This document shows, in pieces, positions 10,305-26,069 of a stretch of 64,000 nucleotides of DNA (position 1 is the stretch's first letter; every line of letters begins with the position of its first letter). The notes under the pieces are model-generated. The model did not search any database. It worked only from the letters and a program-made list of their open reading frames with translations, and was not told the DNA's origin. This DNA comes from a virus. Lineage: Duplodnaviria; Caudoviricetes. Made by a program: the position numbers and the translations under genes. Location: IMG/VR virus record IMGVR_UViG_3300035182_001152; one strand, 5' to 3'.

Positions 10305-10326
10305 GCTATCGAAAGCATAGCGCATA

Positions 10327-10354
10327 AATAACAGAGCCTACGGGCTCTGTTATT
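10327..10354 (+). terminator. Stable hairpin overlapping a late promoter motif
   Basis: AATAACAGAGCC-TACG-GGCTCTGTTATT: 12-bp stem with a C(UACG)G loop, just downstream of the prkA stop. Confidence 0.65.
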
Positions 10355-10366
10355 GTTTGGACAATT

Positions 10367-10981
10367 ATGAAACAATGCATTGATTGCAAACTAACTAAGG
10401 ATGCTACCGAATACGGTAAACATGCCACCACTGCGGATCGTTTGATGCAGCGCTGCAAGGCGTGTCAAAGCGCTTACAATAAGTGTTACCGTGACATGAA
10501 TCGCGATAGGTTAAATACAGAAGACCGCCGCCGGGCGGCAGAACAAGCGGAACTGCGCGCAGTTCGAACGCGAGAATGGATTAAGGCTAATCCTGAACGT
10601 CGCAAACAAACATTGGAATTAAACTATCAGCGCCATAAGGAAGCAGGAACACTGGATAAGTACTACGGTAAGCGCGACCCTAAGGTAGCTCGTCAGCGTG
10701 CCAAGCAGTGGCGTTTAGATAACCCTGGCAAAGTTGCAGCAACTACCGCAAAAAGGCGCGATGTTGTCAGACGGGCAACCGTTCCGTGGACTGAGTGGGA
10801 AGAAATTGAGAAAGTGTACATTGAGTGTGCGCGTATTAGTGAAGAAACAGGGGTCAAGCATCAAGTTGACCATAAGATACCTCTTGTCAACGCCGAAGTT
10901 TGTGGTCTTCACTGTTTAGCCAATCTTCAAATCATCACAGCTGTTGAAAACAATATCAAGAAGTGCAAATTTGTTGATTAA
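10367..10981 (+). CDS. Free-standing HNH homing endonuclease
   Basis: N-terminal C..C...C..C zinc ribbon; C-terminal VDHKIPL...VCGLHCLANLQIITAVEN..K. Confidence 0.9.
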   Translation: MKQCIDCKLTKDATEYGKHATTADRLMQRCKACQSAYNKCYRDMNRDRLNTEDRRRAAEQAELRAVRTREWIKANPERRKQTLELNYQRHKEAGTLDKYYGKRDPKVARQRAKQWRLDNPGKVAATTAKRRDVVRRATVPWTEWEEIEKVYIECARISEETGVKHQVDHKIPLVNAEVCGLHCLANLQIITAVENNIKKCKFVD

Positions 10982-11036
10982 CCCTTTTGACGCAGGTAAG
11001 ATGAAATTAACAAGCGCTAACGCAGGGAGAAATTGA

Positions 11037-11267
11037 ATGTACGAACAAATTGGAGCGACACAAGCGGTATTGCGCTATATTGATCACTACTCCACGGGTG
11101 AGCAAGAGACCTTCGAGAAATCCATCTTTGATGCCCTTGCTCCCGTATATGGACAACAAGAAATCCAAGCCGCCCTTGATTATTTGTTGGGTGTGAAACA
11201 CATCTACACCACTGCTGCTCCCAATCAACGTGATACTACCTACTACACTCTGAGGGGAGTGATCTAA
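11037..11267 (+). CDS. Hypothetical protein (76 aa)
   Basis: GGAG RBS; coupled to the next gene (TAATG). Confidence 0.65.
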   Translation: MYEQIGATQAVLRYIDHYSTGEQETFEKSIFDALAPVYGQQEIQAALDYLLGVKHIYTTAAPNQRDTTYYTLRGVI

Positions 11268-12595
11268 TGGCTCATGTAATTATCGACCGCCGCAAGAATG
11301 ACAAAGGTAAAAGTTCCGTCAACCGTCGGAAGTTTATCGACCGTGTCAAGGGCATTCTGAAGGACGGCGTCAAGGAGATCGTGCGTGATGGCGGTCTCAA
11401 GGATCTTGCAGCTGGTAAGGGCAAGAAGGTCCGCATTCCTGCTCGGAACCTCGACGAGCCGGATTTTCACCACGACGGTTCCGGCCAAAACGACATCGTT
11501 CGTCCTGGCAACGACCGCTATAAGCCTGGCGACAAGTTCAAGCGCCCTGAGAAGGGCGGTCGAGGCGGTCCTGGCAGCGAGGGATCTCCTGACGGTGAAG
11601 GTGAAGACGGCTTCACCTTCAACCTGACGAAGGAAGAGTTCCTCGACCTGTTCTTCGAGAATTGCGTGCTTCCAGATCTGATCAAGCAGAACCTTGCGGT
11701 AATGTCAGAGGAAGTGATTCAACGCAGTGGATTCACGACGGACGGCGCGCCTGCGCAGCTGAATATCATGCGCTCAATGCGCGGAGCAAAGGGTCGTCGT
11801 GCAGGCTTGCGTGCACTAAAGAACAAGAAGCTGCGTGAGTTGGAGGATCAACGAGACGCACTGGTTGCTGACATTGCGCACCGCACTGCGAACAGCATTG
11901 ATGCCTCGATCGAGAAAGACGCTCTCAAGCGCGTCGAACACGAGATTGAGGTGATCAAACGCCGGATCAAGGCAATTCCATTCCTCGATCCGATCGATCT
12001 GCGGTACAACAACTACACGAAGGTCCAGATCCCGAAGGTCCAAGCAGCAATGATCTGCTTGATGGACGTATCTGGCTCTATGGGTGAGTTCAAGAAGGAG
12101 CTGGCCAAGACGTTCTACCTCCTGTTGTACCTGTTCCTCGAGAAGCAGTACGAGAAGATTTCGATTGAGTACATCACGTACCATTCGAAGGCTCAGGTTG
12201 TTGACGAAGAGACGTTCTACTACGGCACGGAAACGGGCGGTACCGTCACGTCAAATGGCGTCAACCTGGCGTATGAGACGATCATGGAGAAGTACAACCC
12301 GAGCCAGTGGAACATCTATGTCGCCCACTCTTCGGACGGCGACAACTGGGGTCAGGACAACGAGCTTGTCACTGATACGGTTGTCAACAAGCTGCTGCCG
12401 ATCGTTCAGTACTATGCGTACGTGCAGGTAAACTCTGAGTATGAATCTGACTACGCCACTGAGCAGACAGGACACAATTTGTGGAGTGTGTACAAGCCGC
12501 TCAGTGATACGAAACGGAACCTGAGTGCTGCGTTGATCACCAGTCACGAAAACGTGTATCCTGTTTTCGTCAAACTGTTCGAGAGGAAGCCGTGA
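11267..12595 (+). CDS. yeaH: YeaH/YhbH (DUF444) vWA-domain protein
   Basis: IIDRR.N.K.KS.VNR.KF N-terminus, MDVSGSM MIDAS motif, GGTVTS, SDGDNW. Confidence 0.93.
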   Translation: MAHVIIDRRKNDKGKSSVNRRKFIDRVKGILKDGVKEIVRDGGLKDLAAGKGKKVRIPARNLDEPDFHHDGSGQNDIVRPGNDRYKPGDKFKRPEKGGRGGPGSEGSPDGEGEDGFTFNLTKEEFLDLFFENCVLPDLIKQNLAVMSEEVIQRSGFTTDGAPAQLNIMRSMRGAKGRRAGLRALKNKKLRELEDQRDALVADIAHRTANSIDASIEKDALKRVEHEIEVIKRRIKAIPFLDPIDLRYNNYTKVQIPKVQAAMICLMDVSGSMGEFKKELAKTFYLLLYLFLEKQYEKISIEYITYHSKAQVVDEETFYYGTETGGTVTSNGVNLAYETIMEKYNPSQWNIYVAHSSDGDNWGQDNELVTDTVVNKLLPIVQYYAYVQVNSEYESDYATEQTGHNLWSVYKPLSDTKRNLSAALITSHENVYPVFVKLFERKP

Positions 12596-14109
12596 TGACA
12601 GAAGTAACCAAGTTCGAAGCAGGTAAGGACTGGTCGTTTGAAGACATCGACCGAGCGTACGACGAAATCCGCAAGATCGCGGAGGACGAATTCAAGATTT
12701 CGTACTACCCAAACCAGATCGAAATCATCACCAGTGAGCAAATGCTGGATGCGTACTCCGCAGTCGGCATGCCTGTGTACTACTCTCACTGGTCGTTCGG
12801 CAAGCAATTCGTTGCGGAGTCGGACAAGTACAGTCGCGGTCACATGGGCCTCGCCTACGAGATTGTGATCAACAGCAATCCTGGCATCGCCTATCTGATG
12901 GAAGAGAACACGCTGATGATGCAGTGCTTGGTGATGGCGCACGCTTGCTTCGGTCACAATTCGTTCTTCAAGAACAACATCCACTTCAAGCAGTGGACTG
13001 ACGCTGAAGGGATCATCGACTACCTGTCGTACGCTAAGCACTTCATTCGCGAATGCGAAGAAAAGTACGGGGAGCAGGAAGTGGAAAAGGTGCTCGATCA
13101 CGCCCACGCGCTTCGTCATCAAGGGATCGACCGTTACAAGCGGCCGCCGCAGCTGTCGAAGGAAAAGCTGAAGGCGCGAGAGAAGGCTCGGATTGAGCAT
13201 GAGGAATCAACGTTTGACGACATGTGGCGGACGATTCCTACAACCAAGAACGAGGTTGTCAAGCGTAAGCATGAGAAGTTTCCAAAGGAATCTGAAGAGA
13301 ACATCCTGTACTTCATTGAGAAGCATGCTCCGAATCTCGAGCAGTGGAAGCGTGAGATTTTGCGAATCGTCCGCAAGGTCGCGCAGTACTTCTACCCTCA
13401 GATGCTGACGCAGATCATGAACGAGGGCTGGGCTACGTTCACGCACTACAACATTCTTGAGCAGATGTACGAGCGGGGACTGGTTACCGACGGATTCATG
13501 CTGGAGTTCTTCGAGAGCCACTCTGGCGTTGTCAATCAACGGCCGATGGCTGCGATCAACCCGTACGCACTCGGCTGGGCAATGTTCAAGGACATCAAGC
13601 GGATGTGCCTGGAACCGACAGACGAAGACCGTCGCTGGTTCCCTGATCTGTGCGGCAAGGAAGACTGGCTCGCTGAGTGCCAGTACGCTGCGTACAACTT
13701 CAAGGACGAGAGCTTCATCCTGCAATATCTGTCTCCGAAGGTGATCCGTGACTTCCAGCTGTTCTACATGCTGGACGACGACGAGAATCCGAAGATCCAG
13801 GTAGAGGCAATTCAGAATGACGAAGGTTACCGAATCATTCGCGAGAAGCTCGCAGAGCAACAGAACGTCAACAACCGACTGCCGTATATCAATGTGGTAG
13901 ACGTCGATGTTCGCGGCGACCGGAAGATGATTCTGGAGCACACGTCGTTCAAACGTCACCTGCTGGACGAGGATGATACTCGTAGGACCCTGGAGCACGT
14001 TGCTGCTCTGTGGGGGTATGAAGTGGAGATCCGCTCGATGGACCCGAGCGGAGAAATGGTGGAGCGGTACACGTTCGATCCAAACGATACGGACGACTAC
14101 GAGGATTAA
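12592..14109 (+). CDS. spoVR: SpoVR/YcgB family protein
   Basis: GMPVYYSHWSFGK, LAYEIVINSNP, AHACFGHNSFFKNN, TQIMNEGWATF, INPYALG. Confidence 0.95.
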   Translation: MMTEVTKFEAGKDWSFEDIDRAYDEIRKIAEDEFKISYYPNQIEIITSEQMLDAYSAVGMPVYYSHWSFGKQFVAESDKYSRGHMGLAYEIVINSNPGIAYLMEENTLMMQCLVMAHACFGHNSFFKNNIHFKQWTDAEGIIDYLSYAKHFIRECEEKYGEQEVEKVLDHAHALRHQGIDRYKRPPQLSKEKLKAREKARIEHEESTFDDMWRTIPTTKNEVVKRKHEKFPKESEENILYFIEKHAPNLEQWKREILRIVRKVAQYFYPQMLTQIMNEGWATFTHYNILEQMYERGLVTDGFMLEFFESHSGVVNQRPMAAINPYALGWAMFKDIKRMCLEPTDEDRRWFPDLCGKEDWLAECQYAAYNFKDESFILQYLSPKVIRDFQLFYMLDDDENPKIQVEAIQNDEGYRIIREKLAEQQNVNNRLPYINVVDVDVRGDRKMILEHTSFKRHLLDEDDTRRTLEHVAALWGYEVEIRSMDPSGEMVERYTFDPNDTDDYED

Positions 14110-14299
14110 CAGCGCGGAAACATACGGTTTTCTTGTTTCGCAAAATGCGAGCGATAAATAGTCATACACATCCTTCTGGACAGTTAATGACGACTTTTCG
14201 CTCGCATTTTTTCGTTCCTGTCACGCTTTTCTCCCTAGCGGAAATTCTTCCGCAACTCCCACCCCTGCACTCCAAAATCCTACCACAGGAGGTCTACCT

Positions 14300-15094
14300 A
14301 TGTCCCGAAAGCGCGCCGTAAAAGCATTCACCCGCCACTCACAACAGACCGCATACGAACGACAACTAGAACAAGCATTACTGGCAAACGGCCGGGCCCA
14401 GCAGGAAGGCCCAACAAAGCGCAAAACATGGTCTCCTCGCGATCTCAAGCCAATTGAAGCGTTGACGCCACCACAGACGGAGATGATTCACGACTATCTG
14501 AACGGATACAACATCATGGCTGGCGGCAGCGCTGGCACAGGTAAGACGTTTGTCGCAATGTATCTTGCACTAAAAGATGTGTTAGATCCACAGACAGAAG
14601 TGGACAAGATCATTCTTGTTCGCTCTGTTGTTGCAACTCGTGACGTAGGTCACCTTCCAGGTACACTCGAAGAAAAGACACAAATCTACGAACGTCCATA
14701 TAAGGACATCTTGCATGATCTGATGGGCCGTGCAAACACGTACCAGGACATGAAGGATGCCGGCATGATCACGTTTGACACAACGTCGTTCATCCGCGGT
14801 ATGACGTTTGATAATGCTGTGATTGTGGTAGATGAAGGTCAGAATATGACGTTCCACGAAATTAACTCAATCATGACGCGCTTGGGCAATAACTCTCGTG
14901 TGATCTTTGTCGGTGACCTGATTCAAACCGACCTGCGCAAACACCGCAGTGACGTATCAGGCATGGAAGACGCGATGAAAGTTGCTGGTCGCATGAGCCG
15001 CTTCTCAACGGTGACGTTTACCAAGCACGACATCGTCCGCAGCGAGTTTGTCAAGGAATGGATTACCGCCACGGAAGACGAGGGGATCCAATAA
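14300..15094 (+). CDS. phoH: PhoH-like ATPase
   Basis: GSAGTGKT, LPGTLEEK, FIRGMTF, DEGQN, GDLIQTD, DIVRS. Confidence 0.95.
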   Translation: MSRKRAVKAFTRHSQQTAYERQLEQALLANGRAQQEGPTKRKTWSPRDLKPIEALTPPQTEMIHDYLNGYNIMAGGSAGTGKTFVAMYLALKDVLDPQTEVDKIILVRSVVATRDVGHLPGTLEEKTQIYERPYKDILHDLMGRANTYQDMKDAGMITFDTTSFIRGMTFDNAVIVVDEGQNMTFHEINSIMTRLGNNSRVIFVGDLIQTDLRKHRSDVSGMEDAMKVAGRMSRFSTVTFTKHDIVRSEFVKEWITATEDEGIQ

Positions 15095-15109
15095 CCAATC
15101 TTCCTAAGA

Positions 15110-15135
15110 AAAAAGCCGCTGTGAAGCGGCTTTTT
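15110..15135. terminator. Bidirectional intrinsic terminator
   Basis: AAAAAGCCGCT-GTGA-AGCGGCTTTTT between convergent genes. Confidence 0.85.
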
Positions 15136-15430
15136 AGTTTGTGGCGTGTCGAGTTGGAGGCGGTCGACGAAGGATTGAAAACACTTGGTCCAAAATCAGC
15201 TCGTCATCCTGTTGGTGTGCGTTCAACCGCAGCACTTGATTGTCTAGCTTTTCAATCAAAGCAGCTTGTGCCTTATCGGTTGCTTGCAAGTCAACAACCT
15301 CACGTTCTAGAACCGTGATACGGGTTGTAAACAAGCCCCAAGCAACCGTCAGAGAGACGGCCAGGGAAATGATGGTAATCAGGTCTTTCAACTCCAACAC
15401 GTGCGTTGATGGTGCGAGTTTTGTGGCCAT
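15134..15430 (-). CDS. Single-TM coiled-coil membrane protein
   Basis: AAAGGAG RBS, late motif at 15455, hydrophobic N-terminal helix followed by heptad-like repeats. Confidence 0.75.
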   Translation of the reverse strand: MATKLAPSTHVLELKDLITIISLAVSLTVAWGLFTTRITVLEREVVDLQATDKAQAALIEKLDNQVLRLNAHQQDDELILDQVFSILRRPPPTRHATN

Positions 15431-15531
15431 TCTTTGCTCTCCTTTGCTGGTAGATATTTATGGGTCAGACCATTCTTCAGAAGTTTTACCCTTGATCTAT
15501 AAATACCAAACCATCATCATTGGAGCCCACA

Positions 15532-15753
15532 ATGAACATCAGCCAGTCCGCCATCGTTCGTGAAATTCTGCGAGCAATTACACTCGTGATTGTAGGGACA
15601 GCTATTATCACAGCTGTTGCAACTAGTCTCCATCCTGCAGCTCCTCCGTACTACGCGATGATTGCAAGCACGCGCACTGAAACACAGGTTGAGCTCAAAA
15701 AGCAAATGGGAGAGACAGTAAATGTTGCCAACAGCGGAACAGGTTCTAAGTAA
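15532..15753 (+). CDS. Small membrane protein
   Basis: GGAG RBS; one TM segment. Confidence 0.6.
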   Translation: MNISQSAIVREILRAITLVIVGTAIITAVATSLHPAAPPYYAMIASTRTETQVELKKQMGETVNVANSGTGSK

Positions 15754-16075
15754 TCTGCCTCTAGCGATTACGTTGTGGACTGCAGCAACGCTGTGCTGGG
15801 GATTGTATATCCTCACAGCGTATAACAAGATGATGAAGCGTGCGTTACAGTTCGACTGGATCAAAACGCGCACCGATCGTTATCATTCAATGTTTATCAT
15901 GGCAGGAAATGCCGTTTTAGTTGCGTTCCTGATGCTTGAGCCGAGCATGACGCAGTATTCAGATGCGGTAATCGTGACAAACATCTTCTTCGGTACATAT
16001 CTTGCAGCAACTTCCACTGCACTCGTTCGTTGGTGGAAAACTGACAAAACCACCCAAACTCGTCTCTTGTCGTAA
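15722..16075 (+). CDS. Small multi-TM membrane protein
   Basis: Three hydrophobic segments; start uncertain. Confidence 0.6.
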   Translation: MLPTAEQVLSNLPLAITLWTAATLCWGLYILTAYNKMMKRALQFDWIKTRTDRYHSMFIMAGNAVLVAFLMLEPSMTQYSDAVIVTNIFFGTYLAATSTALVRWWKTDKTTQTRLLS

Positions 16076-16123
16076 CCTAACAATTGCTGTAAGGTAGGTG
16101 GGTACCTTCAAAGGATACCCATT

Positions 16124-16864
16124 ATGACTACAAAAGACTCCCTAGGCGATAGGATGAAGGGGTACGAGGCAGTTTCCAAAGACTTCCTCATGAAACGAAC
16201 ACCCGTCATCATTCGCCTTGACGGTAAAGCCTTCCACACTTACGCACGGAACCTCCCCGACACAGGTGTCGTTCCGTTCAGTGAAACAATGCACACCGCA
16301 ATGGTTGCAGCTACCGTGGCAGCCGTCAAAGAAGCGCAGGGATGCGTACTGGGCTACACTCAATCGGACGAAATTACGCTACTACTGCGCGACTACGACA
16401 CGCTTGAAACGCAAGCGTGGTTTGGCTACAATGTTCAAAAGATCGTCTCTGTGATTGCGACAGCCACTGCCAACGCCTTCAACTGCGCGTTTCGCCGGAA
16501 TGAGCTGCGCGCTCCAGAGGATTTTGCGAAGTTTGACGCACGAGCATTCAACATTCCGAAGGAAGAAGCGACAAACAACTTCCTCTGGCGTCAACAGGAT
16601 GCCTCCCGCAACAGTATTCAAATGCTTGGGCACTACCACTTCTCTCAGAAGCAAATGCACGCTAAGAACAACAGCGAAGTGCAGGACATGCTGATGCTGG
16701 AAAAGGGCGTCAACTGGAACGACCTACCAACGTGGATGAAGCGCGGAACGTGCGTCGTCAACGACGGTGATCTACGCTTGGCTGTAGATGAGGAGATTCC
16801 AATCTTCACACAAGATCGAGCATACATAGATCAGCACGTGTATATCGACAAGGTAGCAGCATGA
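16124..16864 (+). CDS. thg1: tRNA(His) guanylyltransferase Thg1-like protein
   Basis: RLDGKAFHT, YTQSDEI, FDARAF, WRQQDA.RNSI, NWNDLP...RG. Confidence 0.93.
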   Translation: MTTKDSLGDRMKGYEAVSKDFLMKRTPVIIRLDGKAFHTYARNLPDTGVVPFSETMHTAMVAATVAAVKEAQGCVLGYTQSDEITLLLRDYDTLETQAWFGYNVQKIVSVIATATANAFNCAFRRNELRAPEDFAKFDARAFNIPKEEATNNFLWRQQDASRNSIQMLGHYHFSQKQMHAKNNSEVQDMLMLEKGVNWNDLPTWMKRGTCVVNDGDLRLAVDEEIPIFTQDRAYIDQHVYIDKVAA

Positions 16865-17043
16865 CATCTGAGCAAACGTACGTATTCGAAGGCGTGGAGG
16901 TTCGCAAAACGGGCCGCCGCGCTCAGAACAAATTGAAGAGTGGTAAGATCGACGAGATTGTTGAAGTAACCCCCGTTGACAACATGGTCGGCAGCTGGAA
17001 GAAATGGACACGAGAAGACATGCTGTTTGAGGTGCAACAATGA
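16861..17043 (+). CDS. Hypothetical protein (60 aa)
   Basis: ATGA overlaps on both ends. Confidence 0.65.
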   Translation: MTSEQTYVFEGVEVRKTGRRAQNKLKSGKIDEIVEVTPVDNMVGSWKKWTREDMLFEVQQ

Positions 17044-18797
17044 CTTTCCACGATACGCAATACTTAGAGCTGGTTAAAACAGCCCTTACCCGCGGTGTGC
17101 GCAAGTCAAATCGCACAGGCGTAGACACGCTGTCTGTGTTCGGTCATCAAATGAAGTTTGATCTCCGTGACGGCACAATCCCGATGTTGACAACCAAGAA
17201 AATCCATACTCGTTCGATCATTATTGAGCTGCTGTGGTATCTGCAGGCAAATACAAGTTCCCGAGAGTTGGAACGTCAGGGCGTTACCATCTGGCGAGAA
17301 TGGGCAAATAAGGAAGGTGAGCTAGGGCCCGTCTACGGCGACCAGTGGAGAAACTGGGCGGTCGAACCCAGTGTGGTATTTGTGCAACCGCGCCGGATCA
17401 GCCCCTGTGTGGCTGCACTAGCCACACGTGAACTTATTGAGCCAGAGCAAACAGCTGATGATTTCGTTGGAAGCCACCACCGTACAAAAGAATGTGGTGA
17501 ATTGTTGGTTATCAGACATGACGGAAAATCAGGAAAAGAAAAAACATACACCGTACAGTTCAAGGCGACGGGCTATATAAAAACGAATGTGCGACGCAGC
17601 GTGATTAAGCGTGGACATATTATTGATGTGCTCTTGCCTCGAGTCTCTGGTGTTGGATATCTTGGCGAATTCGATAAGACAGACCCAATGCTAAAGCAAT
17701 TGCAGCGCCATTGGTATAAAATGTTGGATAGATGCTACAATTCATCAACAATAGAATACGCTCTGTACGGCGGGGCCGGGGTACACGTACACCCTGACTG
17801 GCACAACTTTGCAACGTTCCAACGTGATGTAAAACGGATTCCAGGCTGGAACACCAAGCGGCTGAACCCCTTAGCGTACGAACTTGATAAGGATTATTAC
17901 GAATCTAATTGCTACTCTAAGACGACATGCGTGTGGCTGAGCACCCAACACAATACACTGTATCGTCGAAATCCTCGACCATTCATTGCCACCTCACCTG
18001 ACGGTCGTAAATTCACAAGTCTATCAATTGATCAGTTCGCGTCGATTCACGGACTGTCAGGACCCATCATTCGGAAAGTACTAACCGGTCAATACACTCA
18101 TCACAAAGGTTTTACTTTTCAATACCTTGATATTCCACCAGGGAGTGTTGCTCGATATCGCCTGCCAATCGATCAGATCGCCAATCTGGTCCATTCTCTG
18201 AAGAACAACCCGAACGACCGTCGAATGATCGTCACAGCATGGAACCCCGCAGTCCTGCCTGACACCTCCGTCTCATTCGACGACAATGTTGCGAACGGAA
18301 AGCAAGCCCTGCCACCGTGCCATTACACGTTCCAGTGCTTTGCACGCCCACGGACTGTTGAAGAGATGACAAAACATGCGGTCGCCTTACACGGCCAAGA
18401 AGTCATCAAAGACATCAGTGAAAACCAGCACAAAGGCGCTGATTTCTGGAAAGAAACAGACGTGCCGATGTACGAGTTGTCGCTGATGTTGAATCAGCGG
18501 TCGTGCGATATCGGCCTCGGCGTCCCATTCAACATCGTTCAATATAGCATCCTCCTCCGGATGCTATGTGAGGTAGCAAACATGGTTCCAGGTGATTTCA
18601 TTTGGAACGGCGGCGACGTTCACATCTATGAGAACCACATAGAGCAACTGGAGGTGCAACTAACTCACGATCCTCTGCCATCCCCAACGTTTGAATTTGC
18701 ACGGAAAATTACGGACATTGACGACTTCAAGTATGAAGATTTCAGGATCGTCAACTACACGTCACACCCCGTGCTAAAAATGGATGTGGCTGTATAA
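17040..18797 (+). CDS. thyA: Thymidylate synthase carrying an in-frame HNH endonuclease insertion
   Basis: RTGVDT, TTKK, ELLWYL, GPVYGDQWRNW [insert] IDQI, RRMIVTAWNP, LPPCH, QRSCD.GLGVPFN, GDVHIYENH. Confidence 0.95.
   Translation: MTFHDTQYLELVKTALTRGVRKSNRTGVDTLSVFGHQMKFDLRDGTIPMLTTKKIHTRSIIIELLWYLQANTSSRELERQGVTIWREWANKEGELGPVYGDQWRNWAVEPSVVFVQPRRISPCVAALATRELIEPEQTADDFVGSHHRTKECGELLVIRHDGKSGKEKTYTVQFKATGYIKTNVRRSVIKRGHIIDVLLPRVSGVGYLGEFDKTDPMLKQLQRHWYKMLDRCYNSSTIEYALYGGAGVHVHPDWHNFATFQRDVKRIPGWNTKRLNPLAYELDKDYYESNCYSKTTCVWLSTQHNTLYRRNPRPFIATSPDGRKFTSLSIDQFASIHGLSGPIIRKVLTGQYTHHKGFTFQYLDIPPGSVARYRLPIDQIANLVHSLKNNPNDRRMIVTAWNPAVLPDTSVSFDDNVANGKQALPPCHYTFQCFARPRTVEEMTKHAVALHGQEVIKDISENQHKGADFWKETDVPMYELSLMLNQRSCDIGLGVPFNIVQYSILLRMLCEVANMVPGDFIWNGGDVHIYENHIEQLEVQLTHDPLPSPTFEFARKITDIDDFKYEDFRIVNYTSHPVLKMDVAV
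17358..18167 (+). mobile_element. HNH-type homing endonuclease domain inserted in frame in thyA (aa 107-376)
   Basis: V.F..TG...I..G..D...P.V.GVGYLG, WYKMLDRCY...YGGAGV.V...W..FATF, ELDKDY...YSKTTCVW....N, and a C-terminal NUMOD1-like helix ending KGFTF. Confidence 0.85.
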
Positions 18798-18867
18798 ATA
18801 ATGCCAATACGATACGTCATACAACGGCGTCGCTGTGGTGCCGTTGAGCAATCTTCCGGAGAATAAG

Positions 18868-19209
18868 ATGGCTCACTTCAATGTTACGTACAAGGCTCGC
18901 AATGTAAACACTAAGCGTTTGCTTGAGCGTGTGGTACAAACCGTTCAAAACACAGTAGAAGAGTTCGTATATGTTCGTACGACACAATTCTCTCAACCGT
19001 ACGACTTCTCGGGCGTATCCGACTATATCGACATGTTCATGGAGCAGTTGGTTGAAGAACATGTTATCACCACATATGACGTGATCGGTGACACACGCAA
19101 CAATGACCTACACTCAATGACGCGTGGTACATTGGTCCTCGATCTTGAGTTCCAGCAGTTCAACTGCCTTAATACGACCTCAATTACGTTCGAGATCCGC
19201 AAAGTTTGA
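18868..19209 (+). CDS. Hypothetical protein
   Basis: GGAG RBS before ATG 18868; late motif at 18793. Confidence 0.7.
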   Translation: MAHFNVTYKARNVNTKRLLERVVQTVQNTVEEFVYVRTTQFSQPYDFSGVSDYIDMFMEQLVEEHVITTYDVIGDTRNNDLHSMTRGTLVLDLEFQQFNCLNTTSITFEIRKV

Positions 19210-19212
19210 CCG

Positions 19213-19241
19213 TTGACCCTCAGCCGTAGTCGTAGTATAGT
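19213..19241 (+). promoter_or_regulatory. Sigma70-like promoter of the ligase gene
   Basis: TTGACC - 17 nt - TATAGT. Confidence 0.65.
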
Positions 19242-19271
19242 CTCCGCATCAACTGATCGTGGAGACCATTC

Positions 19272-21227
19272 ATGCTGACTATCCAAGAGGGCAAGCAAAT
19301 TGCCAAGGAAATGTTCGTCCTCGGGTCGTACGAGGACTTTTCCGTTGCACAAATCATCGAGCTGCTGACGCTCGCAGATGATTTGTACTTCAACGAACAA
19401 CAGGCGATCGACCTTCTGGAAGATGATCAATACGACGCCCTGAAACAATACGCTGCGCGCCTCGCGCCGGCAAACGTGTACTTCACGGGCGTTGGCAGCT
19501 CCGTCCGCGGTGGGAAGATCACACTGCCTTTCCAAATGGGTTCGCTGAATCAAGTGTATGTCGGCGGAGACTTCGAGCGTTGGGTCGGCAAGTACTACAT
19601 CGCGGCTGAGTTGCTGGTGATTTCGAACAAGCTGGACGGCGCCAGTGCGATGTACGTGTACGACATCAACGGCAACCTTCAGATTGCGTATTCGCGTGGG
19701 GATGGCGTGCAAGGCGCTGACATCACCCGACACGCGCGCAAACTGCACGACGTTCCAGCAAAGATCGACAACAAGACGGGCGCTCCCGTCACTGTCCGCG
19801 CTGAGAATATCATCAAGCCGGTAGAGTTTGCGATCGTCAATACGGGCAAGTATGCGCGCGGCGGCCGCATCTACAAAAACCCGCGCAACATGGTCTCCGG
19901 CCTGATGAACTCATCGTCGTTGCACGACCAGATGTATGATGCGATCGACACGGTTGCATACGAAATCGTCGGCTCGACAACGACCAAAGAGGACCAACTG
20001 AAGCAACTGAAGGCATACGGCTTCCACGTCGTCGAGTACGAAACCGCAATTGCGGGCGATCTCGACGAACAAGACCTGACCGACATCCTCAACCGCGTCC
20101 GTAAGAACTCTGAGTATGAGTTGGACGGTATCGTGATCGACATTAACAGCGCGAAGATTCGGGCCAAGATCAAGACTGACGACCTGAATCCTGAGTACGC
20201 TGTCAAGTTCAAGGTCGCTGATTCGTCGAACTATGCAGAGGCTCGCTGCACGAACGTTGAATGGAACGTATCGAAAGACGGCTATTACAAGCCGCGCGTT
20301 CAGATTGAACCGACCAATCTCGTTGGCGTGACTATCACGAACCTCACTGGATTCAATGCGAAGTTCATCAAGGAAAACAACATCGGTCCTGGCGCGATCC
20401 TCAAGATCACGCGTTCAGGCGATGTGATCCCTTATATTTTGGGCGTCGCAACGCCTGCTCCGTCTGGCCCGCAATTGCCCGACGATGGTGAAGCGGTGTG
20501 GACGGATACTGGGGTTGACCTCGTCGTGGCAGATGTTAGCAACAACGAGACTGTTAATTTCGAGCGTCTGAACGACTTTTTTTCGTCGATTGACGTCCCG
20601 CACCTCGGTGCAGGGAACCTCAGGATGATGTTCGAGATGGGGTTCGACACTCCGGAAAAGATCATCCCGCTGACAGTTGAAGACATCAGTAGCCTGGTCA
20701 AATCGCGCTCGATTGGCTCCAAGATCCACAAAGGTCTTCGTGACAAGCTGACGAACATGGCGCTGCCGGATCTGATGGGCTCGCACAGTGCCTTCGGCCG
20801 TGGCGTGGGTAAGCGGAAGATGAAGAAGCTGTACGAAGCGTTCAAAGGCGAGATGCACTACTGTGTAGAGGTCAGCAAGATTGTTGGGATCGAAGGATTC
20901 GACACGAAGACGGCTACGAAGATCGCCCGCGGCTACCCGGAGTTCGAGGCATTCCTCGAGGTGATTCGCCCGTACGTGACGTTTGCTCCGTATGAGGAAA
21001 AGGCTGTCGGCAATCTGACCGGCAAGGATATCGTCATTACGGGTTTTCGTGATAAGTCCCTGGATATAAAGATTGAAGAGCTTGGTGGACGTGTTGCGTC
21101 TGGTGTATCAAACAAGACGCACGTTGTAGTGGCAGCTGATCCTACCGATTCATCTACTAAACTCACAAAAGCGCGGGCGTTGGGCATTCGGATTGTATCA
21201 AAGGACGAGTTTTTAGCATCTCTATAA
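19272..21227 (+). CDS. ligA: NAD-dependent DNA ligase
   Basis: Y..G...D.QYD.L, KLDGAS (KxDG), SRGDG, NPRN, ELDGIVI, AVKF, RSGDVIPYI and a C-terminal BRCT domain. Confidence 0.95.
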   Translation: MLTIQEGKQIAKEMFVLGSYEDFSVAQIIELLTLADDLYFNEQQAIDLLEDDQYDALKQYAARLAPANVYFTGVGSSVRGGKITLPFQMGSLNQVYVGGDFERWVGKYYIAAELLVISNKLDGASAMYVYDINGNLQIAYSRGDGVQGADITRHARKLHDVPAKIDNKTGAPVTVRAENIIKPVEFAIVNTGKYARGGRIYKNPRNMVSGLMNSSSLHDQMYDAIDTVAYEIVGSTTTKEDQLKQLKAYGFHVVEYETAIAGDLDEQDLTDILNRVRKNSEYELDGIVIDINSAKIRAKIKTDDLNPEYAVKFKVADSSNYAEARCTNVEWNVSKDGYYKPRVQIEPTNLVGVTITNLTGFNAKFIKENNIGPGAILKITRSGDVIPYILGVATPAPSGPQLPDDGEAVWTDTGVDLVVADVSNNETVNFERLNDFFSSIDVPHLGAGNLRMMFEMGFDTPEKIIPLTVEDISSLVKSRSIGSKIHKGLRDKLTNMALPDLMGSHSAFGRGVGKRKMKKLYEAFKGEMHYCVEVSKIVGIEGFDTKTATKIARGYPEFEAFLEVIRPYVTFAPYEEKAVGNLTGKDIVITGFRDKSLDIKIEELGGRVASGVSNKTHVVVAADPTDSSTKLTKARALGIRIVSKDEFLASL

Positions 21228-21870
21228 GATCGTCTGGGAGCATCCCCCACCTCCCGGATGGAGACGTAACGTATACGTTCCCTTGCCCTAGCCATCGCTC
21301 GTACTTGTCCACTTGAGCACGAATCAGCGACAGAGACCAGTAAGGAGCGTCCAATTTTACCTCCACTCCTACGCCAAGGTCAGGTAGATAGATATCTATT
21401 TGACCCTTAGATCTATTTCCTGTTGATGAATATTCTATTCGAACTGTTGACGTAACTTCATTAACAATGCGCCACACTATGTGTTGTCGAAATAAGTCCT
21501 CAAGACTGAAACTCACCGGTACAGGCATCTCTTTACCAAGATATAGATCCTTAATAAGTTCCGATTGCCGCTGCTTTTCAGCCTGGTACTGTGCCAAGCG
21601 GGTATCCTTGAGCAATGTCCCATATCGTTCTTTGTGGTAGGCGCTGATGCGCTCCTTGTTTCGCTCGGCATATGCTCTGTCCGTATATCGTCTGCGTTCG
21701 GTGTTATTTGCTCGCCACTGAGTCCGGCCGCTCGCTCGTTTCTCTGTACTACAACACTCAACGCACCCACTGTTTGACGTGTAGCGACGACCCACGTGCC
21801 CGAACGCCCGACAAGGGCCAACACTATCGTAGAATCTGGATCCTTGTTGTTTTGCTTCATCTTTTGTCAT
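21163..21870 (-). CDS. Putative homing endonuclease (N-terminal Cys/His Zn module plus PD-(D/E)xK domain)
   Basis: PC..GH..RY.S..CVEC N-terminus; IDIYLPDLGVGVEVK C-terminus; overlaps the ligA 3' end convergently. Confidence 0.7.
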   Translation of the reverse strand: MTKDEAKQQGSRFYDSVGPCRAFGHVGRRYTSNSGCVECCSTEKRASGRTQWRANNTERRRYTDRAYAERNKERISAYHKERYGTLLKDTRLAQYQAEKQRQSELIKDLYLGKEMPVPVSFSLEDLFRQHIVWRIVNEVTSTVRIEYSSTGNRSKGQIDIYLPDLGVGVEVKLDAPYWSLSLIRAQVDKYERWLGQGNVYVTSPSGRWGMLPDDLIEMLKTRPLIQSECPTPALL

Positions 21871-21933
21871 GTTCTCTACTTACATAAATACGTGTATAAT
21901 CTGTATTTATGTGAGTTCCGTTGCGGAGATGCT

Positions 21934-22304
21934 ATGATCGTACCACGCAACCTCGATTTGGATCGGCTGCATCAAGCCATAGAACTGGTCACATCTGAGC
22001 GCGACCGTCATCACCGTGAGGGCAAGACGGTAGCGTATGTCACGATGATGATTGGCGAGGTTGAACTGGGCGGCCAACAGAACAACACCTGTACATCGGC
22101 AATGACGGGTTCTTCACCGGCTTCCGCTCAGCGGAGCTGGAGAAGCAGATCATCAACGCAGGTGGTTCGATGGGCTCGTCGGTCAGCAAGAATACCACGT
22201 ACCTCGTCACTGCCGAACCAAACAGCACTTCGACGAAAGCGCAGAAGGCTCGCTCCATCGGTGTCACCGTTATCGGTCAAGATAAGCTGAAGGCGATGCT
22301 GTAA
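21934..22304 (+). pseudogene. ORF joined out of frame to an orphan second BRCT domain
   Basis: ATG 21934 with GGAG RBS. In another frame, 22113-22304 encodes FTGFRSAELEKQIINAGGSMGSSVSKNTTYLVTAEPNSTSTKAQKARSIGVTVIGQDKLKAML* with no start codon of its own (in-frame stop at 22062). Confidence 0.7.
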
Positions 22305-22374
22305 CCCAACAATATTACCTATTTTCACTACATCCCGATTGTGTTAGGATGTAGTGAACTAACAGGAGAAATGA

Positions 22375-22599
22375 ATGGTTCACGGACCAGAAGTTGGAAT
22401 GAAGTATCATGTGATTTTGCATGGCCGCCAGCAAGAATTGTTCGCTGGCCAGCCTGCGTCACGCCATCAACAACTGTCCAATCAGCTGCTGCAGTTTGCG
22501 GATCAGGTTCGCAACTGCAAGTGGGAAGAGTTTGAAGAGTGGTACGAAATCTACAAAGATACGTACATGCCACCTACCAAGAAGAGGAGTAGGGTTTGA
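22375..22599 (+). CDS. Hypothetical protein
   Basis: AGGAG RBS; overlaps the DHFR start. Confidence 0.55.
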   Translation: MVHGPEVGMKYHVILHGRQQELFAGQPASRHQQLSNQLLQFADQVRNCKWEEFEEWYEIYKDTYMPPTKKRSRV

Positions 22600-23309
22600 C
22601 GACCGAACAAGACACCGCTACACAAGAAGAAGCAGCGCGCCGCGCCGCGTTTGAGCAGGCTGCTCGACAGGCTCATGCTCAGCATGCCCACCAACAACGG
22701 CAAGCGTATGAGCAGCACCAGGCCGCAATGCGCGCTCAGATGGAGGCGGATCGCTGGGCACGAATCACACAGCAGCTGATTAACAAGAGCCCGCGCCAGC
22801 AGTACGCGTGCATTGTAGCAGTAGACCTTTGTGGTGGGTTCAGCAAGGACGGCAAGATCCCGTGGAACTATACTGCTGACTTCAAGTGGTTCCAACAAAA
22901 GACAGAGGGCCACATCTGTGTGATGGGTCGCGCAACTTACGATGACTTGGTCAACCACCTCGGCAGCAAGGGTGACGAGAGCATTTTGCCTGGCCGCAAG
23001 TGCTTTGTGGTAACGTCATCGCCGCTGCCCAAGGATAATGCAATCGCAGTTAAGTCGATCAGTGAGGTCGACAAGCATCTGACATTTGAGGACGCTGAGA
23101 ATAAGACGGTGTTCTTCATCGGTGGCGAGCGGATCTACAGTGAAGGAATCGCTAAGGCGAACACGCTGTACATCACGGTTGTCAACAAAGAGGTTGACGC
23201 GGACCGGTTTTTTCCAACCAACTATACGTTGAAGCACTTCAACATGGAGCAGCAGTTCGTCAACGACAAGACACCAGACTTGCGCTTCACCATCTGGAAA
23301 CGCAAATGA
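22596..23309 (+). CDS. folA: Dihydrofolate reductase with a Q/A-rich N-terminal extension
   Basis: IVAVD..GGF..DGKIPW...DFKWF...T.GH..VMGRATY, LPGRK, FFIGGERIY, DADRFFP. Confidence 0.92.
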   Translation: MTTEQDTATQEEAARRAAFEQAARQAHAQHAHQQRQAYEQHQAAMRAQMEADRWARITQQLINKSPRQQYACIVAVDLCGGFSKDGKIPWNYTADFKWFQQKTEGHICVMGRATYDDLVNHLGSKGDESILPGRKCFVVTSSPLPKDNAIAVKSISEVDKHLTFEDAENKTVFFIGGERIYSEGIAKANTLYITVVNKEVDADRFFPTNYTLKHFNMEQQFVNDKTPDLRFTIWKRK

Positions 23310-23578
23310 GTCCAGTGATCTACTGGGGTCCGTATGACCGCAAGATGATTGAGACGAAGTACGCAGAGTACAAAGCGAAGCGTGAAGCTGACGGTGGTGA
23401 GATTGAAGGATATGTGATTCAGGTCGACGAGCCCTATCACTTCAGTCACTTCAAAAACTATGTTGATAAATACGTTCGCAAAGGCCATGTTATGACAACG
23501 CAACATTGGATGTATGGCCAAGCTGTGGTGCCCAACACTTTGAAAGAGGGCCTCACCGGTTTTGAGTCGGTGACATAA
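23306..23578 (+). CDS. Hypothetical protein
   Basis: ATGA coupling with DHFR. Confidence 0.65.
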   Translation: MSPVIYWGPYDRKMIETKYAEYKAKREADGGEIEGYVIQVDEPYHFSHFKNYVDKYVRKGHVMTTQHWMYGQAVVPNTLKEGLTGFESVT

Positions 23579-23595
23579 TGAAAGACAAGTGTTAA

Positions 23596-24126
23596 ATGAC
23601 CCTCGATGAGTTACTACAAGAAAAACACACACCAAGTGGAACATACGCAGCCGTAAAGTTCAGCCAGGACACAAAGGATGCGATCGAAAAGTACATCAAA
23701 GACAATGACATCCCTAACGGGTTAGCAGCGTCAAAGATGCACTGCACTTTACTGTACAGCCGCAAGCATTGCCCTGATTACGAGCCATTAGGTAAGATCG
23801 ATCCACCGTGGATCGGCAAGCCGACTGGCTTGGATGTGTGGGAATCAAAAGGCGAACAGGACGGAGAAGAGGGAACACGTTGCCTCGTAATGGAGTTCAA
23901 GTGTGACAAGCTGAACGAACGCCATGAACAACTGATGGATGAACATCAAGCGACGTATGACTTCCCTGAATACAAAACACACGTCACACTGTCATATGAC
24001 ATTGGTGATTTAGACGAAGCAGAACTACCAGATATCAAGAGCGTTGTCAAGAAGCTGGAAATCGTTGAAGAATATGGCGAGGATCTTGATTTGAGCTGGG
24101 CCAAAAACGAGGGAACGGAAAAATGA
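23596..24126 (+). CDS. acb1: Acb1/T4 gp57B-like 2H phosphodiesterase (anti-CBASS nuclease)
   Basis: GTYAAVKFS N-terminus and two HxT motifs (MHCTLLYSR; YKTHVTLSYD) with DF.EY preceding, as in T4 57B. Confidence 0.85.
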   Translation: MTLDELLQEKHTPSGTYAAVKFSQDTKDAIEKYIKDNDIPNGLAASKMHCTLLYSRKHCPDYEPLGKIDPPWIGKPTGLDVWESKGEQDGEEGTRCLVMEFKCDKLNERHEQLMDEHQATYDFPEYKTHVTLSYDIGDLDEAELPDIKSVVKKLEIVEEYGEDLDLSWAKNEGTEK

Positions 24127-24410
24127 ACACAACAGACAAGACGATTTCTACGTACACACAAAACGATACAACATCAGGGAGTGAGGATGCAATCCTCACT
24201 GGCATGCGCTGCTTCTCCGTTGCGTTAGGCCACTGGCTAAAGCATGCTGAGGCTGTGTGTGTTACGCTGGCTCCACAGCCGAATTTTCCAAACGACCGTA
24301 GCGGCCGCTTTGTCGTGTTCCGCAATCAGGATCAGATCCTGATCAACTATGCGCCAGAAGGCTTGCGAGCTGCTGACGGTGAAGTGTTCTCCATTGGAGA
24401 ATTTCAATGA
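24123..24410 (+). CDS. Hypothetical protein
   Basis: Coupled ORF. Confidence 0.6.
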   Translation: MNTTDKTISTYTQNDTTSGSEDAILTGMRCFSVALGHWLKHAEAVCVTLAPQPNFPNDRSGRFVVFRNQDQILINYAPEGLRAADGEVFSIGEFQ

Positions 24411-24694
24411 TCACCGCCAAGCAAGTTGAAAGCCACAGCTGGTGCAAGTTCGCCAAGCTGCGGACGTTCGCGTTGTCGGGCGAAAATGGTCAACATCCGT
24501 TCTCGATCACGATTGATGCTCGTGACGTTGATGCGACACTTGAAATGGCGCTTACCCGATTCTGTGACGAACCCCACAATCCAATCATGCGTCAAGACGG
24601 CGGTAAGTACGTGATCGATCGTTGGGAGCCGGAAGCCCGCGCCCCCAAGGATGAGATCAAGCAAGCTCTGTTGCAAGCGCTACGCGTGGAATAA
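24407..24694 (+). CDS. Hypothetical protein
   Basis: Coupled ORF. Confidence 0.6.
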   Translation: MITAKQVESHSWCKFAKLRTFALSGENGQHPFSITIDARDVDATLEMALTRFCDEPHNPIMRQDGGKYVIDRWEPEARAPKDEIKQALLQALRVE

Positions 24695-25527
24695 TGCATT
24701 GGATACTGCAAGTAAACATCTCCAATGAAGACGGCTGGAAGTCATTGGTTGAAACACTCGACCGATTCGATATTCCGTATTCTATCCACAAGGTCGTTCC
24801 GTTTGTTGGTGAGATCGAACCTGACATTAACCCGGAAGGCCCGGTGATCTGTTTTGGTACATATTCACTCCGCCACCTTGCTAAGAAGAAGGGGTGGTAT
24901 CCGGGTGTATTTGACCTTGAGCCGTTCGACTTTAGTGTCCAGCTTGATCACTGGGGGCAGCATATGTTCAACGCTGACTCAGTGATCACCAGATTTGACG
25001 ACGCTGTGTTTACGAATGAGCAAATGTTTGTTCGTCCAGCAAACGATACGAAGTATTTTGCAGGTAAGGTCTACGACCGTGATGAGTTCGAGGAATGGCA
25101 GCGGAATGTCTGCACACTGAATCTCGACTACGGCAACAGCCTGAAGAATGACACCTTGATCCAAGTTAGCCCCGTCAAGAAGACGCTGAATGAACACCGG
25201 TTCTGGATCGTCAAAGGCAAGATTGTTACGGCGTCAACGTACAAGATCGGCCGGACTGTCCATTACCAGGCTCCCGTAGACGAACGGTTCCATCAGTACG
25301 TTGAGGAGCGGGTTGCTGAATGGCAGCCTCTTGATGCATTTGTTATTGACGTCTGTGATACTCAAGACGGTGGGATCAAGATCATGGAGATCAATACTAT
25401 CAATGCATCAGGCTTCTACGCTGGTGATATGCAGAAACTCGTGTTTGCACTAGAGGAGGCGTTCAACGTCCCTACGGAGCCAGATCTGCTTGACCATAAA
25501 ATAAGGAGCTGTGATGACACAATGTAG
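24694..25527 (+). CDS. ATP-grasp domain protein (DUF4343/R2K-like)
   Basis: FVRPANDTKYFAG, EHRFWIVKGKIVTAS.Y, FVIDV, IMEINTINASGFY. Confidence 0.85.
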   Translation: MHWILQVNISNEDGWKSLVETLDRFDIPYSIHKVVPFVGEIEPDINPEGPVICFGTYSLRHLAKKKGWYPGVFDLEPFDFSVQLDHWGQHMFNADSVITRFDDAVFTNEQMFVRPANDTKYFAGKVYDRDEFEEWQRNVCTLNLDYGNSLKNDTLIQVSPVKKTLNEHRFWIVKGKIVTASTYKIGRTVHYQAPVDERFHQYVEERVAEWQPLDAFVIDVCDTQDGGIKIMEINTINASGFYAGDMQKLVFALEEAFNVPTEPDLLDHKIRSCDDTM

Positions 25528-25924
25528 CCATCCGTATCAGGACATTGCGACATTTGTTGCAGAAAAGATGCCAGATGTTCTGTGGGTTCCTCGCAAGCAC
25601 CACATTATCTACATATCCCCAACAGAACGGTTGAACGTTACTGTTGAGCGTGGCACTTCGGAAGACGGGAAATACTTTGGTTACGGGATGTACCGCCACG
25701 ACATTCTGGAGCAGGCGGGGATTCACGAAGCAGCGAACGATTCGGAGAATCTGGCAGAGGCTTACTTTGAAAAGCTGTTTGACTACCTGTCTGTTCGAGA
25801 CATGCTGGCTGTCCGCCAGCGGATCAACAAGTACATTGATAATTTCAACACAAGGTGGGTCGAGCAAGGCCTGCAACCGGTTGGAGATGAAAATAAAACC
25901 ACTAGACAAAACGGAGCAGTTTGA
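25511..25924 (+). CDS. Hypothetical protein
   Basis: ORF in the co-oriented array; start uncertain. Confidence 0.6.
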   Translation: MMTQCSHPYQDIATFVAEKMPDVLWVPRKHHIIYISPTERLNVTVERGTSEDGKYFGYGMYRHDILEQAGIHEAANDSENLAEAYFEKLFDYLSVRDMLAVRQRINKYIDNFNTRWVEQGLQPVGDENKTTRQNGAV

Positions 25925-26069
25925 CAAGCTCAGTGAGGTTGAAACGGACGTTGGTAAGCGAGACGTCCGTGAATCGCGCCGCCGCATTAAGCAGCTAATG
26001 CACAAGCACGCCCGGACAGCCGGCAAGCGTGAGCTGAGGCGGGTGATGGAGGGTGAGAATGACGATTGA
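25887..26069 (+). CDS. Small basic hypothetical protein
   Basis: GGAG RBS before ATG 25887. Confidence 0.55.
   Translation: MKIKPLDKTEQFDKLSEVETDVGKRDVRESRRRIKQLMHKHARTAGKRELRRVMEGENDD

Follow-up and report, generated by a model that had tools for sequence, protein, structure and literature searches.

How can an endonuclease-type selfish gene live inside an essential gene if nothing splices it out? The usual view is that such genes persist in essential genes by no means other than intron or intein splicing, or else sit between genes. The question is raised by a gene on the viral record IMGVR_UViG_3300035182_001152 (Duplodnaviria; Caudoviricetes), of which a stretch of 64,000 nucleotides (nt), referred to here as the window, was analysed: its thymidylate synthase gene, thyA, holds 270 uninterrupted codons that encode an endonuclease-like protein in the reading frame of the enzyme. 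From sequence comparison we think it probable that this insert is a homing-endonuclease-type mobile element with an in-frame, non-splicing lifestyle in thyA, and that it stays in the protein. A whole endonuclease-type protein would then appear to remain in a nucleotide-synthesis enzyme while still spreading horizontally under strong selection, a lifestyle within an essential enzyme that has been little described for selfish genes. If this is true, tolerance by the host protein can replace splicing, and nature offers here a case of large-domain insertion into a well-studied enzyme. The architecture is also found in cultured phages of Bacillus subtilis, Bacillus thuringiensis, Klebsiella pneumoniae and Escherichia coli.

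The fusion gene and the make-up of its insert

The fusion is a single open reading frame (ORF) of 585 amino acids (aa), the start of which overlaps the stop of the upstream ORF (ATGA). Its match to the Pfam family PF00303 (E 5e-94) is divided into two stretches that cover profile positions 1-~108 and 109-266, the second beginning at aa 377, and the NCBIfam and PHROG results are concordant with Pfam. QWRNW (aa 102-106) and IDQI (aa 377-380) immediately border the 270 stop-free codons (17358-18167), so that the in-frame insert reported in the initial annotation is confirmed by both the ORF list and the divided Pfam match. The parts of the gene are as follows, each with the evidence that defines it.

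17040-18797, + strand: ThyA with embedded endonuclease-like insert, a single ORF of 585 aa (ORF list; Pfam, NCBIfam and PHROG)
17040-17357, + strand: ThyA N-terminal part, aa 1-106, last residues LGPVYGDQWRNW (first Pfam/NCBIfam stretch)
17238-17357, + strand: upstream flank with a separate history, aa 67-106 (identity by segment; breakpoints in other pairs)
17358-18167, + strand: in-frame insert of 270 codons, aa 107-376 (ORF, Pfam, PHROG, junction alignments)
17358-17453, + strand: N-linker, insert aa 1-32, with the short beta-strand VVFV at aa 112-115 (AlphaFold model; gp46 alignment)
17407-17427, + strand: 8-bp hairpin (folding against shuffles; inverted-repeat search)
17454-17621, + strand: insert aa 33-88, a small beta domain of SH3/Tudor/AP2-like type (small beta-barrels match it with VIA-align Z 4-6)
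17661-17957, + strand: central core, insert aa ~102-200 (conservation over 61 fusions)
17883-17894, + strand: L-D-K-D motif in the central core (conservation over 61 fusions)
17961-18137, + strand: I-HmuI-like NUMOD/helix-turn-helix (HTH) DNA-binding domain, insert aa 202-260 (PDB profile match; structure superposition)
18138-18167, + strand: C-junction strand (…ARYRLP) with the near-invariant Arg R266 (AlphaFold strand aa 370-373; conservation)
18168-18797, + strand: ThyA C-terminal part, aa 377-585, from IDQI, with the catalytic Cys427 and R394/R395, R487, D490, N498, H528 and Y530 (Pfam; alignment)

The host enzyme looks complete on either side of the insert. In the N-terminal part R25, E63, W85, W88 and Y99 are invariant (alignment A2), and across 96 sequences including the window protein R25, E63, R394, R395, C427, H428, R487, S488, D490, N498, H528 and Y530 are invariant; the ThyA signatures are all present, namely the Cys nucleophile in PPCH, the RR pair, RSxD, the N of PFN and the H and Y of GDxHxY. 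AlphaFold2 models the whole 585-aa chain with a predicted local distance difference test score (pLDDT) of 96.5 and a predicted template-modelling score (pTM) of 0.93, and the ThyA part of the model superposes on E. coli thymidylate synthase structures with a template-modelling score (TM) of 0.95 by target. A family match over the full length of ThyA goes together with a predicted ThyA fold that is intact despite the insert, the fusion being modelled as one confident, integrated body. Relative to E. coli ThyA there are two more extra segments, at 18252-18311 and 18345-18473 (aa ~405-424 and ~436-478); both are also present in insert-free relatives (P0021 and others) and in the enzyme of Tenacibaculum phage PTm1, so they belong to the host enzyme lineage and not to the mobile insert.

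Insert residues 38-258 match the PHROG family 2081, 'HNH endonuclease' (E 7e-53); modelled alone the insert reaches a pLDDT of 96.7 and falls into three modules, and its G+C content at third codon positions is 0.43, against 0.58-0.62 in the ThyA parts. What was inserted can be read from Bacillus phage Chotacabras, in which gp46, a free-standing protein of 240 aa encoded just upstream of an intact thyA, aligns from its residue 3 with insert aa 33-242 (36% identity, E 2e-45). Because the alignment starts at residue 3, the insert amounts to an entire free-standing protein to which an N-linker of 32 aa and a C-strand of ~12 aa are added, the N-linker being missing from free-standing relatives, with which homology begins only at insert aa 33.

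The first of the three modules, the small beta domain, has relatives in AFDB named as AP2-domain or HNH proteins and is presumed to bind DNA. The last is homologous to the C-terminal domain of I-HmuI (1u3e), to which the family profile matches at E 2e-6 and the structure superposes with VIA Z 9.3 and a root-mean-square deviation (rmsd) of 1.3 Å over 58 residues at 34% identity; the NUMOD-like end noticed in the initial annotation is borne out by this match. PF22083 matches 25 of 47 family members (best E 1.5e-9) and the window protein weakly, at 21.8-23.9 bits, under the 27-bit cut-off. In the model, strands 112-115 and 370-373 flank the inserted module, and R266 (insert numbering) in the second of them is kept in 60 of 61 fusions. 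Insert-free relatives have a loop of 20-25 residues at the insertion site, in the place of which the two strands of the element stand; we infer that these strands mimic the native hairpin.

Two other candidate features were set aside. The 8-bp hairpin at 17407-17427 does exist, as had been noted, but its importance fails, since the region folds no better than shuffles (z = -1.08); inverted repeats of equal or greater length occur elsewhere in the gene, the linker in which it lies is not conserved, and it is probably a product of chance. Matches to WD40 repeats from a PDB sequence search with the single insert are spurious and were disregarded.

Movement between thyA alleles

In a tree of the ThyA parts alone, fusions and insert-free enzymes are interleaved, with at least 15 changes of state, 8 of them forced by starred branches; approximately unbiased (AU) tests reject both a single clade of fusions (p = 0.0001) and a single clade of the hosts of lineage A (p = 0.003), lineage A being the insert lineage of the window's gene. 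Identity between inserts correlates weakly with identity between the ThyA parts that carry them (r = 0.40): there are ThyA pairs 72% identical with inserts 19% identical, and there are inserts more alike than their hosts. The insert-free relatives for which the initial annotation had suggested looking are found, as are many fusions at the same site, and the ThyA tree places repeated gains and losses between them.

The same alternation is seen between closely related phages. In one syntenic pair of loci, a fusion (L014) and an insert-free allele (L015), the flanks are 98.2% identical over 1,701 nt and 99.64% identical over 3,592 nt, and between them 933 nt stand in place of 186 nt; identity breaks off sharply on the left at thyA codon ~67, and the right-hand breakpoint coincides exactly with the P-IDQ codons. 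A second pair (L010 and L011) repeats the pattern of presence and absence with its left breakpoint at codon ~90. The replaced segment takes in 20-40 codons of homologous but diverged upstream thyA, as co-conversion from a diverged donor would leave. The window gene carries a comparable trace: against P0021, the nearest insert-free ThyA, it is 85% identical over aa 1-66, 55% over aa 67-106 and 75% over aa 377-585, and the middle segment is 65-70% identical to the same region in other lineage-A fusion hosts, so that aa 67-106 are probably a co-conversion tract that travelled with the insert. In LGPVYG the Gly-Pro is substituted in 30-44% of fusions but in <5% of empty alleles; these figures, uncorrected for phylogeny, hint at target-site immunity.

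Sporadic presence, precise boundaries, co-conversion of the flank and incongruent phylogenies of element and host are, as judged from these comparisons, the behaviour of a homing endonuclease gene. The initial annotation had proposed a selfish element that neither splices nor stands alone and survives as a permanent domain in a tolerant ThyA loop; all of the comparative evidence fits this proposal except for the word 'permanent', which is wrong because the insert has been gained and lost repeatedly.

The same record bears on the possibility that the insert has become a domesticated ThyA domain, no longer selfish, serving to tether the enzyme to DNA or to the replication complex, or to attack host DNA or rival phages, and kept for the benefit of the phage. 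Strong purifying selection would suit such a role, as would the integrated and highly confident fold prediction and the near-invariant Arg of the junction strand, and in the jumbo phage PhiPA3 an intron endonuclease is reported to give a competitive benefit (PMC11620839). However, the insert is patchily distributed, having been gained or lost at least 15 times; it is present in some phages and absent from near-identical ones, and close ThyAs carry different insert lineages, all of which is unexpected of a fixed beneficial domain. We regard domestication as quite unlikely, while noting that benefit to the phage and selfish spread are compatible with each other.

Two side observations concern these loci. 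L014 and L015 differ in a second patch (L014:2899-2994, ~22 mismatches in 96 nt), where the NT5C-like gene upstream has its 3' end, in surroundings that are 98-99.6% identical; this is another small mosaic or recombination tract close to thyA. A metagenomic phage contig of 135.7 kilobases (L016) is syntenic with window positions 9000-26000 at ~72-83% DNA identity, with the shared gene order SpoVR, PhoH, Thg1, thyA, NAD-ligase, DHFR, RNA ligase and Acb1; its thyA is insert-free and provides a natural empty-site comparator for this phage lineage.

Probable retention of the insert in the protein

Whether the insert stays in the ThyA polypeptide can be approached through the way it evolves. Among three related fusions the ratio of non-synonymous to synonymous substitution rates (dN/dS) is 0.09-0.10 for the insert and 0.065-0.09 for its core. 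The junctions are constrained as well, at 0.18-0.22 for the N-linker (a homologous linker, in lineage C) and 0.08-0.14 for the C-junction, and such low values mean that the junction segments evolve as protein. With a dS of 0.6-0.7 in the insert and a saturated dS in the ThyA flanks, sharing of the insert is more recent than the divergence of its hosts. The reading frame is open in all of the ~130 fusions seen.

Nor do the ends of the insert resemble those of an intein. It begins AVEP and finishes RYRLP, followed by Ile; the junctions of >60 fusions have no conserved Cys, Ser or Thr at +1 and no terminal Asn or Gln, and the sole conserved junction features are the beta-strand of the N-linker and the near-invariant Arg of the C-strand. 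No HINT or intein domain is matched by Pfam on the fusion ORF and fold searches return no HINT protein, an absence that is no proof by itself. Outside the endonuclease homology there are ~32 + 12 residues (~45), against ~130-150 for HINT, which are too few for a HINT fold. At the nucleotide level the same remainder is 96 + 36 = 132 nt. In Bastillevirinae the non-coding sequence of group I introns amounts to 350 ± 108 nt (PMC11878797), and by that measure there appears to be no room for an intron core. Internal sigma-70-like promoter sites are no commoner than in shuffles. The initial annotation had reported the lack of intein termini and HINT blocks, of space for a group I intron and of an internal promoter, and it holds on each count. 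Comparison among relatives shows the insert to be translated in frame under purifying selection, mobile and co-converting, and without intein features.

Several points nonetheless weigh against the reading of a nuclease element that stays in the protein, those on retention being given here and those on the core below. That RNA and protein are unspliced and unprocessed in this phage and its relatives is something we infer from the sequences. AlphaFold confidence is no sign that the fusion persists in the cell, since any given chain gets modelled. The Rfam result, no match in the window at E<=10 and none in 10 homologous loci at E<=1, is a weak negative, because thyA of Erwinia phage AH06, a presumed intron control, is likewise without a match; an intein or intron match of the kind that the initial annotation took as decisive against itself is found in neither Pfam nor Rfam, with this reservation for the second. 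The AH06 locus (L008:995-2989) has thyA in pieces of 870 nt and 300 nt around a gene labelled 'HNH homing endonuclease', at a different site; it gives no group I intron match in Rfam at E<=1 and is either a divergent intron or a gene in pieces.

Could the insert be removed after all, through unrecognised RNA splicing, unconventional protein splicing, or proteolysis to a two-piece ThyA? The failure of the Rfam group I model on a likely control leaves room for this, as does the residence of the same protein family inside group I introns. Against it are the junctions, with a dN/dS of 0.08-0.22 that marks them as protein and, in 60+ homologues, no conserved nucleophile or terminal Asn/Gln; the remainder outside the homology, which at ~45 residues is too small for HINT and at 132 nt compares with ~350 nt in Bastillevirinae introns; and the frame that is open in each of the ~130 fusions. 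On this balance removal is very unlikely.

The core, its proposed mode of spread and its relatives

The initial annotation had called the insert a complete HNH-type endonuclease. The PHROG 2081 match agrees with this, but HNH is so by annotation only, with no Pfam HNH match and no canonical His. The core is strongly conserved: in 61 fusions whose inserts are 25-54% identical, W119, C126, G138, V144, W148, K178 and Y186 are invariant, D177, D179, C191 and R125 are kept at >=97% (D177 and D179 in 60 of 61), and residue 199, in the helix after the motif, is N or Q in 58. In the insert model its secondary structure (strand 174-177, strand 192-195, helix 196-203) is compatible with a beta-beta-alpha-Me fold. 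The points that count against a nuclease here are that none of the Pfam HNH models matches any of 47 family members at E<=1; that the L-D-K-D motif has no His, the invariant K178 standing at the presumed site of the catalytic His (in a by-eye alignment to the HNH consensus, made with no tool); and that among HNH enzymes the one most similar in structure, PacI, matches only weakly (Z 4.6, rmsd 3.4 Å over 92 residues). Nuclease activity of the core is a prediction from the company that the family keeps.

That company does point to a nuclease. Neighbours of the core in the ESM Atlas are unnamed phage clusters, often with NUMOD modules, and the argument for a nuclease is drawn from NUMOD-type modules, group I intron ORFs, copies beside thyA and copies inside a fragmented gyrB-like gene. 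In Bastillevirinae, self-splicing group I introns of the DNA polymerase genes carry ORFs for PHROG 2081 proteins (PMC11878797). The gyrB-like case is on a metagenome contig (L020:2774-8623; also L021 and L022), where P0123, a relative of the insert with 259 aa, comes right after a 383-aa GyrB-like N-terminal fragment and a second 259-aa gene comes just before a 63-aa GyrB_C fragment; the locus has the look of a topoisomerase gene that two members of one endonuclease family have broken into pieces.

Were the core inactive, the insert might be a passenger, a DNA-binding pseudo-nuclease moved by ordinary phage recombination or at the breaks of a nuclease acting in trans. The absence of the canonical HNH general-base His, with K178 invariant in L-D-K-D, agrees with this, as does the lack of a Pfam HNH match in 47 members, and in phage T4 a defunct endonuclease gene is reported to be trans-homed by a neighbouring one (PMC2790892). 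A passenger would not readily account for D177, K178, D179, C126, C191, W119, W148 and Y186 being kept in 60-61 of 61 fusions that are only 25-54% identical, nor for a core dN/dS of 0.065-0.09; its relatives, moreover, occupy classic homing-endonuclease positions as intron ORFs, beside thyA and inside a fragmented gyrB-like gene, and sharp breakpoints recur at the same site in independent pairs. We consider the passenger explanation unlikely.

On the preferred reading of a mobile, non-splicing element, the insert would spread between the thyA alleles of co-infecting phages by break-induced gene conversion, taking with it up to ~40 codons of the donor's upstream thyA and replacing the recipient's native loop of ~20-25 residues. 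The embedded core would make the initiating break or nick in empty thyA alleles, and the insert would be translated within ThyA from ThyA's own start and expression signals. The beta domain, the conserved core and the I-HmuI-like HTH would be carried on a two-stranded stalk made of the N-linker and the C-strand; the stalk would leave the ThyA fold and catalytic residues intact, and the fusion would be expected to keep ThyA activity. More speculatively, the nuclease may also serve competition between phages, and the obligate dimer of ThyA may pair two nuclease modules for a double-strand cut.

A wider interpretation, which we put forward as possible but doubtful, would see here a third widespread lifestyle of homing endonucleases, as a permanently translated and folded domain of a host enzyme whose own stalk replaces a native surface hairpin. 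Such a domain would borrow the promoter, the ribosome-binding site and the obligate homodimer of ThyA, and paired single-site modules would cut both strands of insert-free thyA in competitors; the same tentative interpretation takes the core for a histidine-less HNH relative (D-K-D ... N) with new chemistry.

How does the element compare with known systems? I-TevI and I-BmoI are GIY-YIG homing endonucleases in group I introns of td/thyA. Like the insert they are homing elements that target conserved coding sequence of thymidylate synthase genes; unlike it they belong to the GIY-YIG family, have a different insertion site and are removed by RNA splicing. Inteins with homing endonuclease domains, including HNH-type ones in phages, lie in frame in conserved enzymes, home at the level of DNA and are sporadic. 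The insert shares with them an in-frame position near functionally critical sequence, a homing logic and a sporadic distribution, and differs in lacking a HINT domain, an N-terminal Cys/Ser and a C-terminal Asn with Cys/Ser/Thr after it, and in being predicted to stay in the mature protein. The free-standing seg and mob endonucleases of T4, which practise intronless homing, have their own ORFs and expression signals and sit between genes or split a host gene, whereas the ThyA insert and its host are one polypeptide; they resemble its family in that the latter also occurs free-standing beside thyA and in a fragmented gyrB-like gene, and in the co-conversion of flanks. I-HmuI, the HNH nicking endonuclease of the DNA polymerase intron of Bacillus phage SPO1 (1u3e), is alike in its homologous C-terminal NUMOD-like/HTH domain, and the intron ORFs of Bastillevirinae (PMC11878797) belong to the same PHROG family 2081; in contrast to both, the ThyA insert has no ribozyme and no canonical HNH His, and it has an extra N-terminal beta domain.

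The closest precedent that we found is the ShiLan domain, an insertion in a mycobacteriophage DNA methylase (Arsenault, Gosselin & Gogarten 2025, PMC11855218). It too is actively homing, is open in the frame of its host, shows neither intein nor intron features that could be detected, and should by prediction be kept as an excursion from the host protein; its HNH gene, however, is in another frame, and its in-frame product is an unstructured hairpin or loop (PMC11855218). In the ThyA insert it is the endonuclease-like protein itself that is in frame, predicted to fold into a three-module domain of an enzyme from an essential pathway, and far more widespread. Other-frame ORFs in 17358-18167 are only 40-76 aa long, and the endonuclease-family homology is in the ThyA frame. 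In the full-text literature searched, a coverage that leaves out most subscription journals, no description of an in-frame endonuclease-type domain in ThyA was found.

The architecture recurs among phages. A tblastn search of GenBank phages returned ThyAs that are single ORFs of 517-564 aa and hold a homologous insert in this very position; their carriers are Bacillus phages 015DV002 and Kioshi, Klebsiella phage KP13-7 and Escherichia phage ph0011. GenBank labels the fusion genes 'thymidylate synthase', 'hypothetical protein' or 'HNH endonuclease'. A large protein collection added dozens more fusions, which align over their full length at 32-57% identity, and also insert-free relatives, of which the closest reach 73% identity. 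A word-indexed search gave only two free-standing relatives, and an exhaustive profile search was needed: with the insert core it returned 104,780 proteins at E<=0.001, of which 1,520 were at E<=1e-30. Among the best 150 representatives of 50%-identity clusters, ~72 are ThyA fusions, nearly all at the same site, ~47 are free-standing (228-320 aa) and 31 are longer proteins with no recognisable host. In 20 longer family members scanned for other host enzymes, the recognisable hosts were again ThyA and the rest had no Pfam family. If these relationships are true, the core defines a large unrecognised nuclease-like family, with >100,000 proteins at E<=0.001 and no Pfam model, and the labelling of its genes as 'thymidylate synthase', 'HNH endonuclease' or 'hypothetical protein' alone is a systematic annotation problem.

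For the DNA of the window itself, no near-identical sequence was found among GenBank phages. The stretch is present in four DNA metagenome runs (microbial mat and sediment), and no RNA run is listed; in the contigs of these four runs there is no joint across the insert and no insert-free variant, and the only extra pieces are short contigs from other organisms that match the conserved LGPVYG..QWR codons.

Two variants of the architecture remain to be described. In PTm1 (L002:1495-3078) the insert is shifted ~17 codons upstream, to a site ahead of the GxxYGxQW motif with ...IWRDWC on one side and ...GAMYGVQWNKW on the other, and most of its N-terminal beta domain is missing, which suggests that it was inserted independently; among the proteins of the profile search, P0158 may resemble it. 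In P0080, P0083, P0087, P0098, P0115 and P0086 the inserts are shortened to ~150-200 aa, the N-terminal beta domain or more being missing, and they may either be in the degeneration phase of a homing cycle or be functional variants of minimal size.

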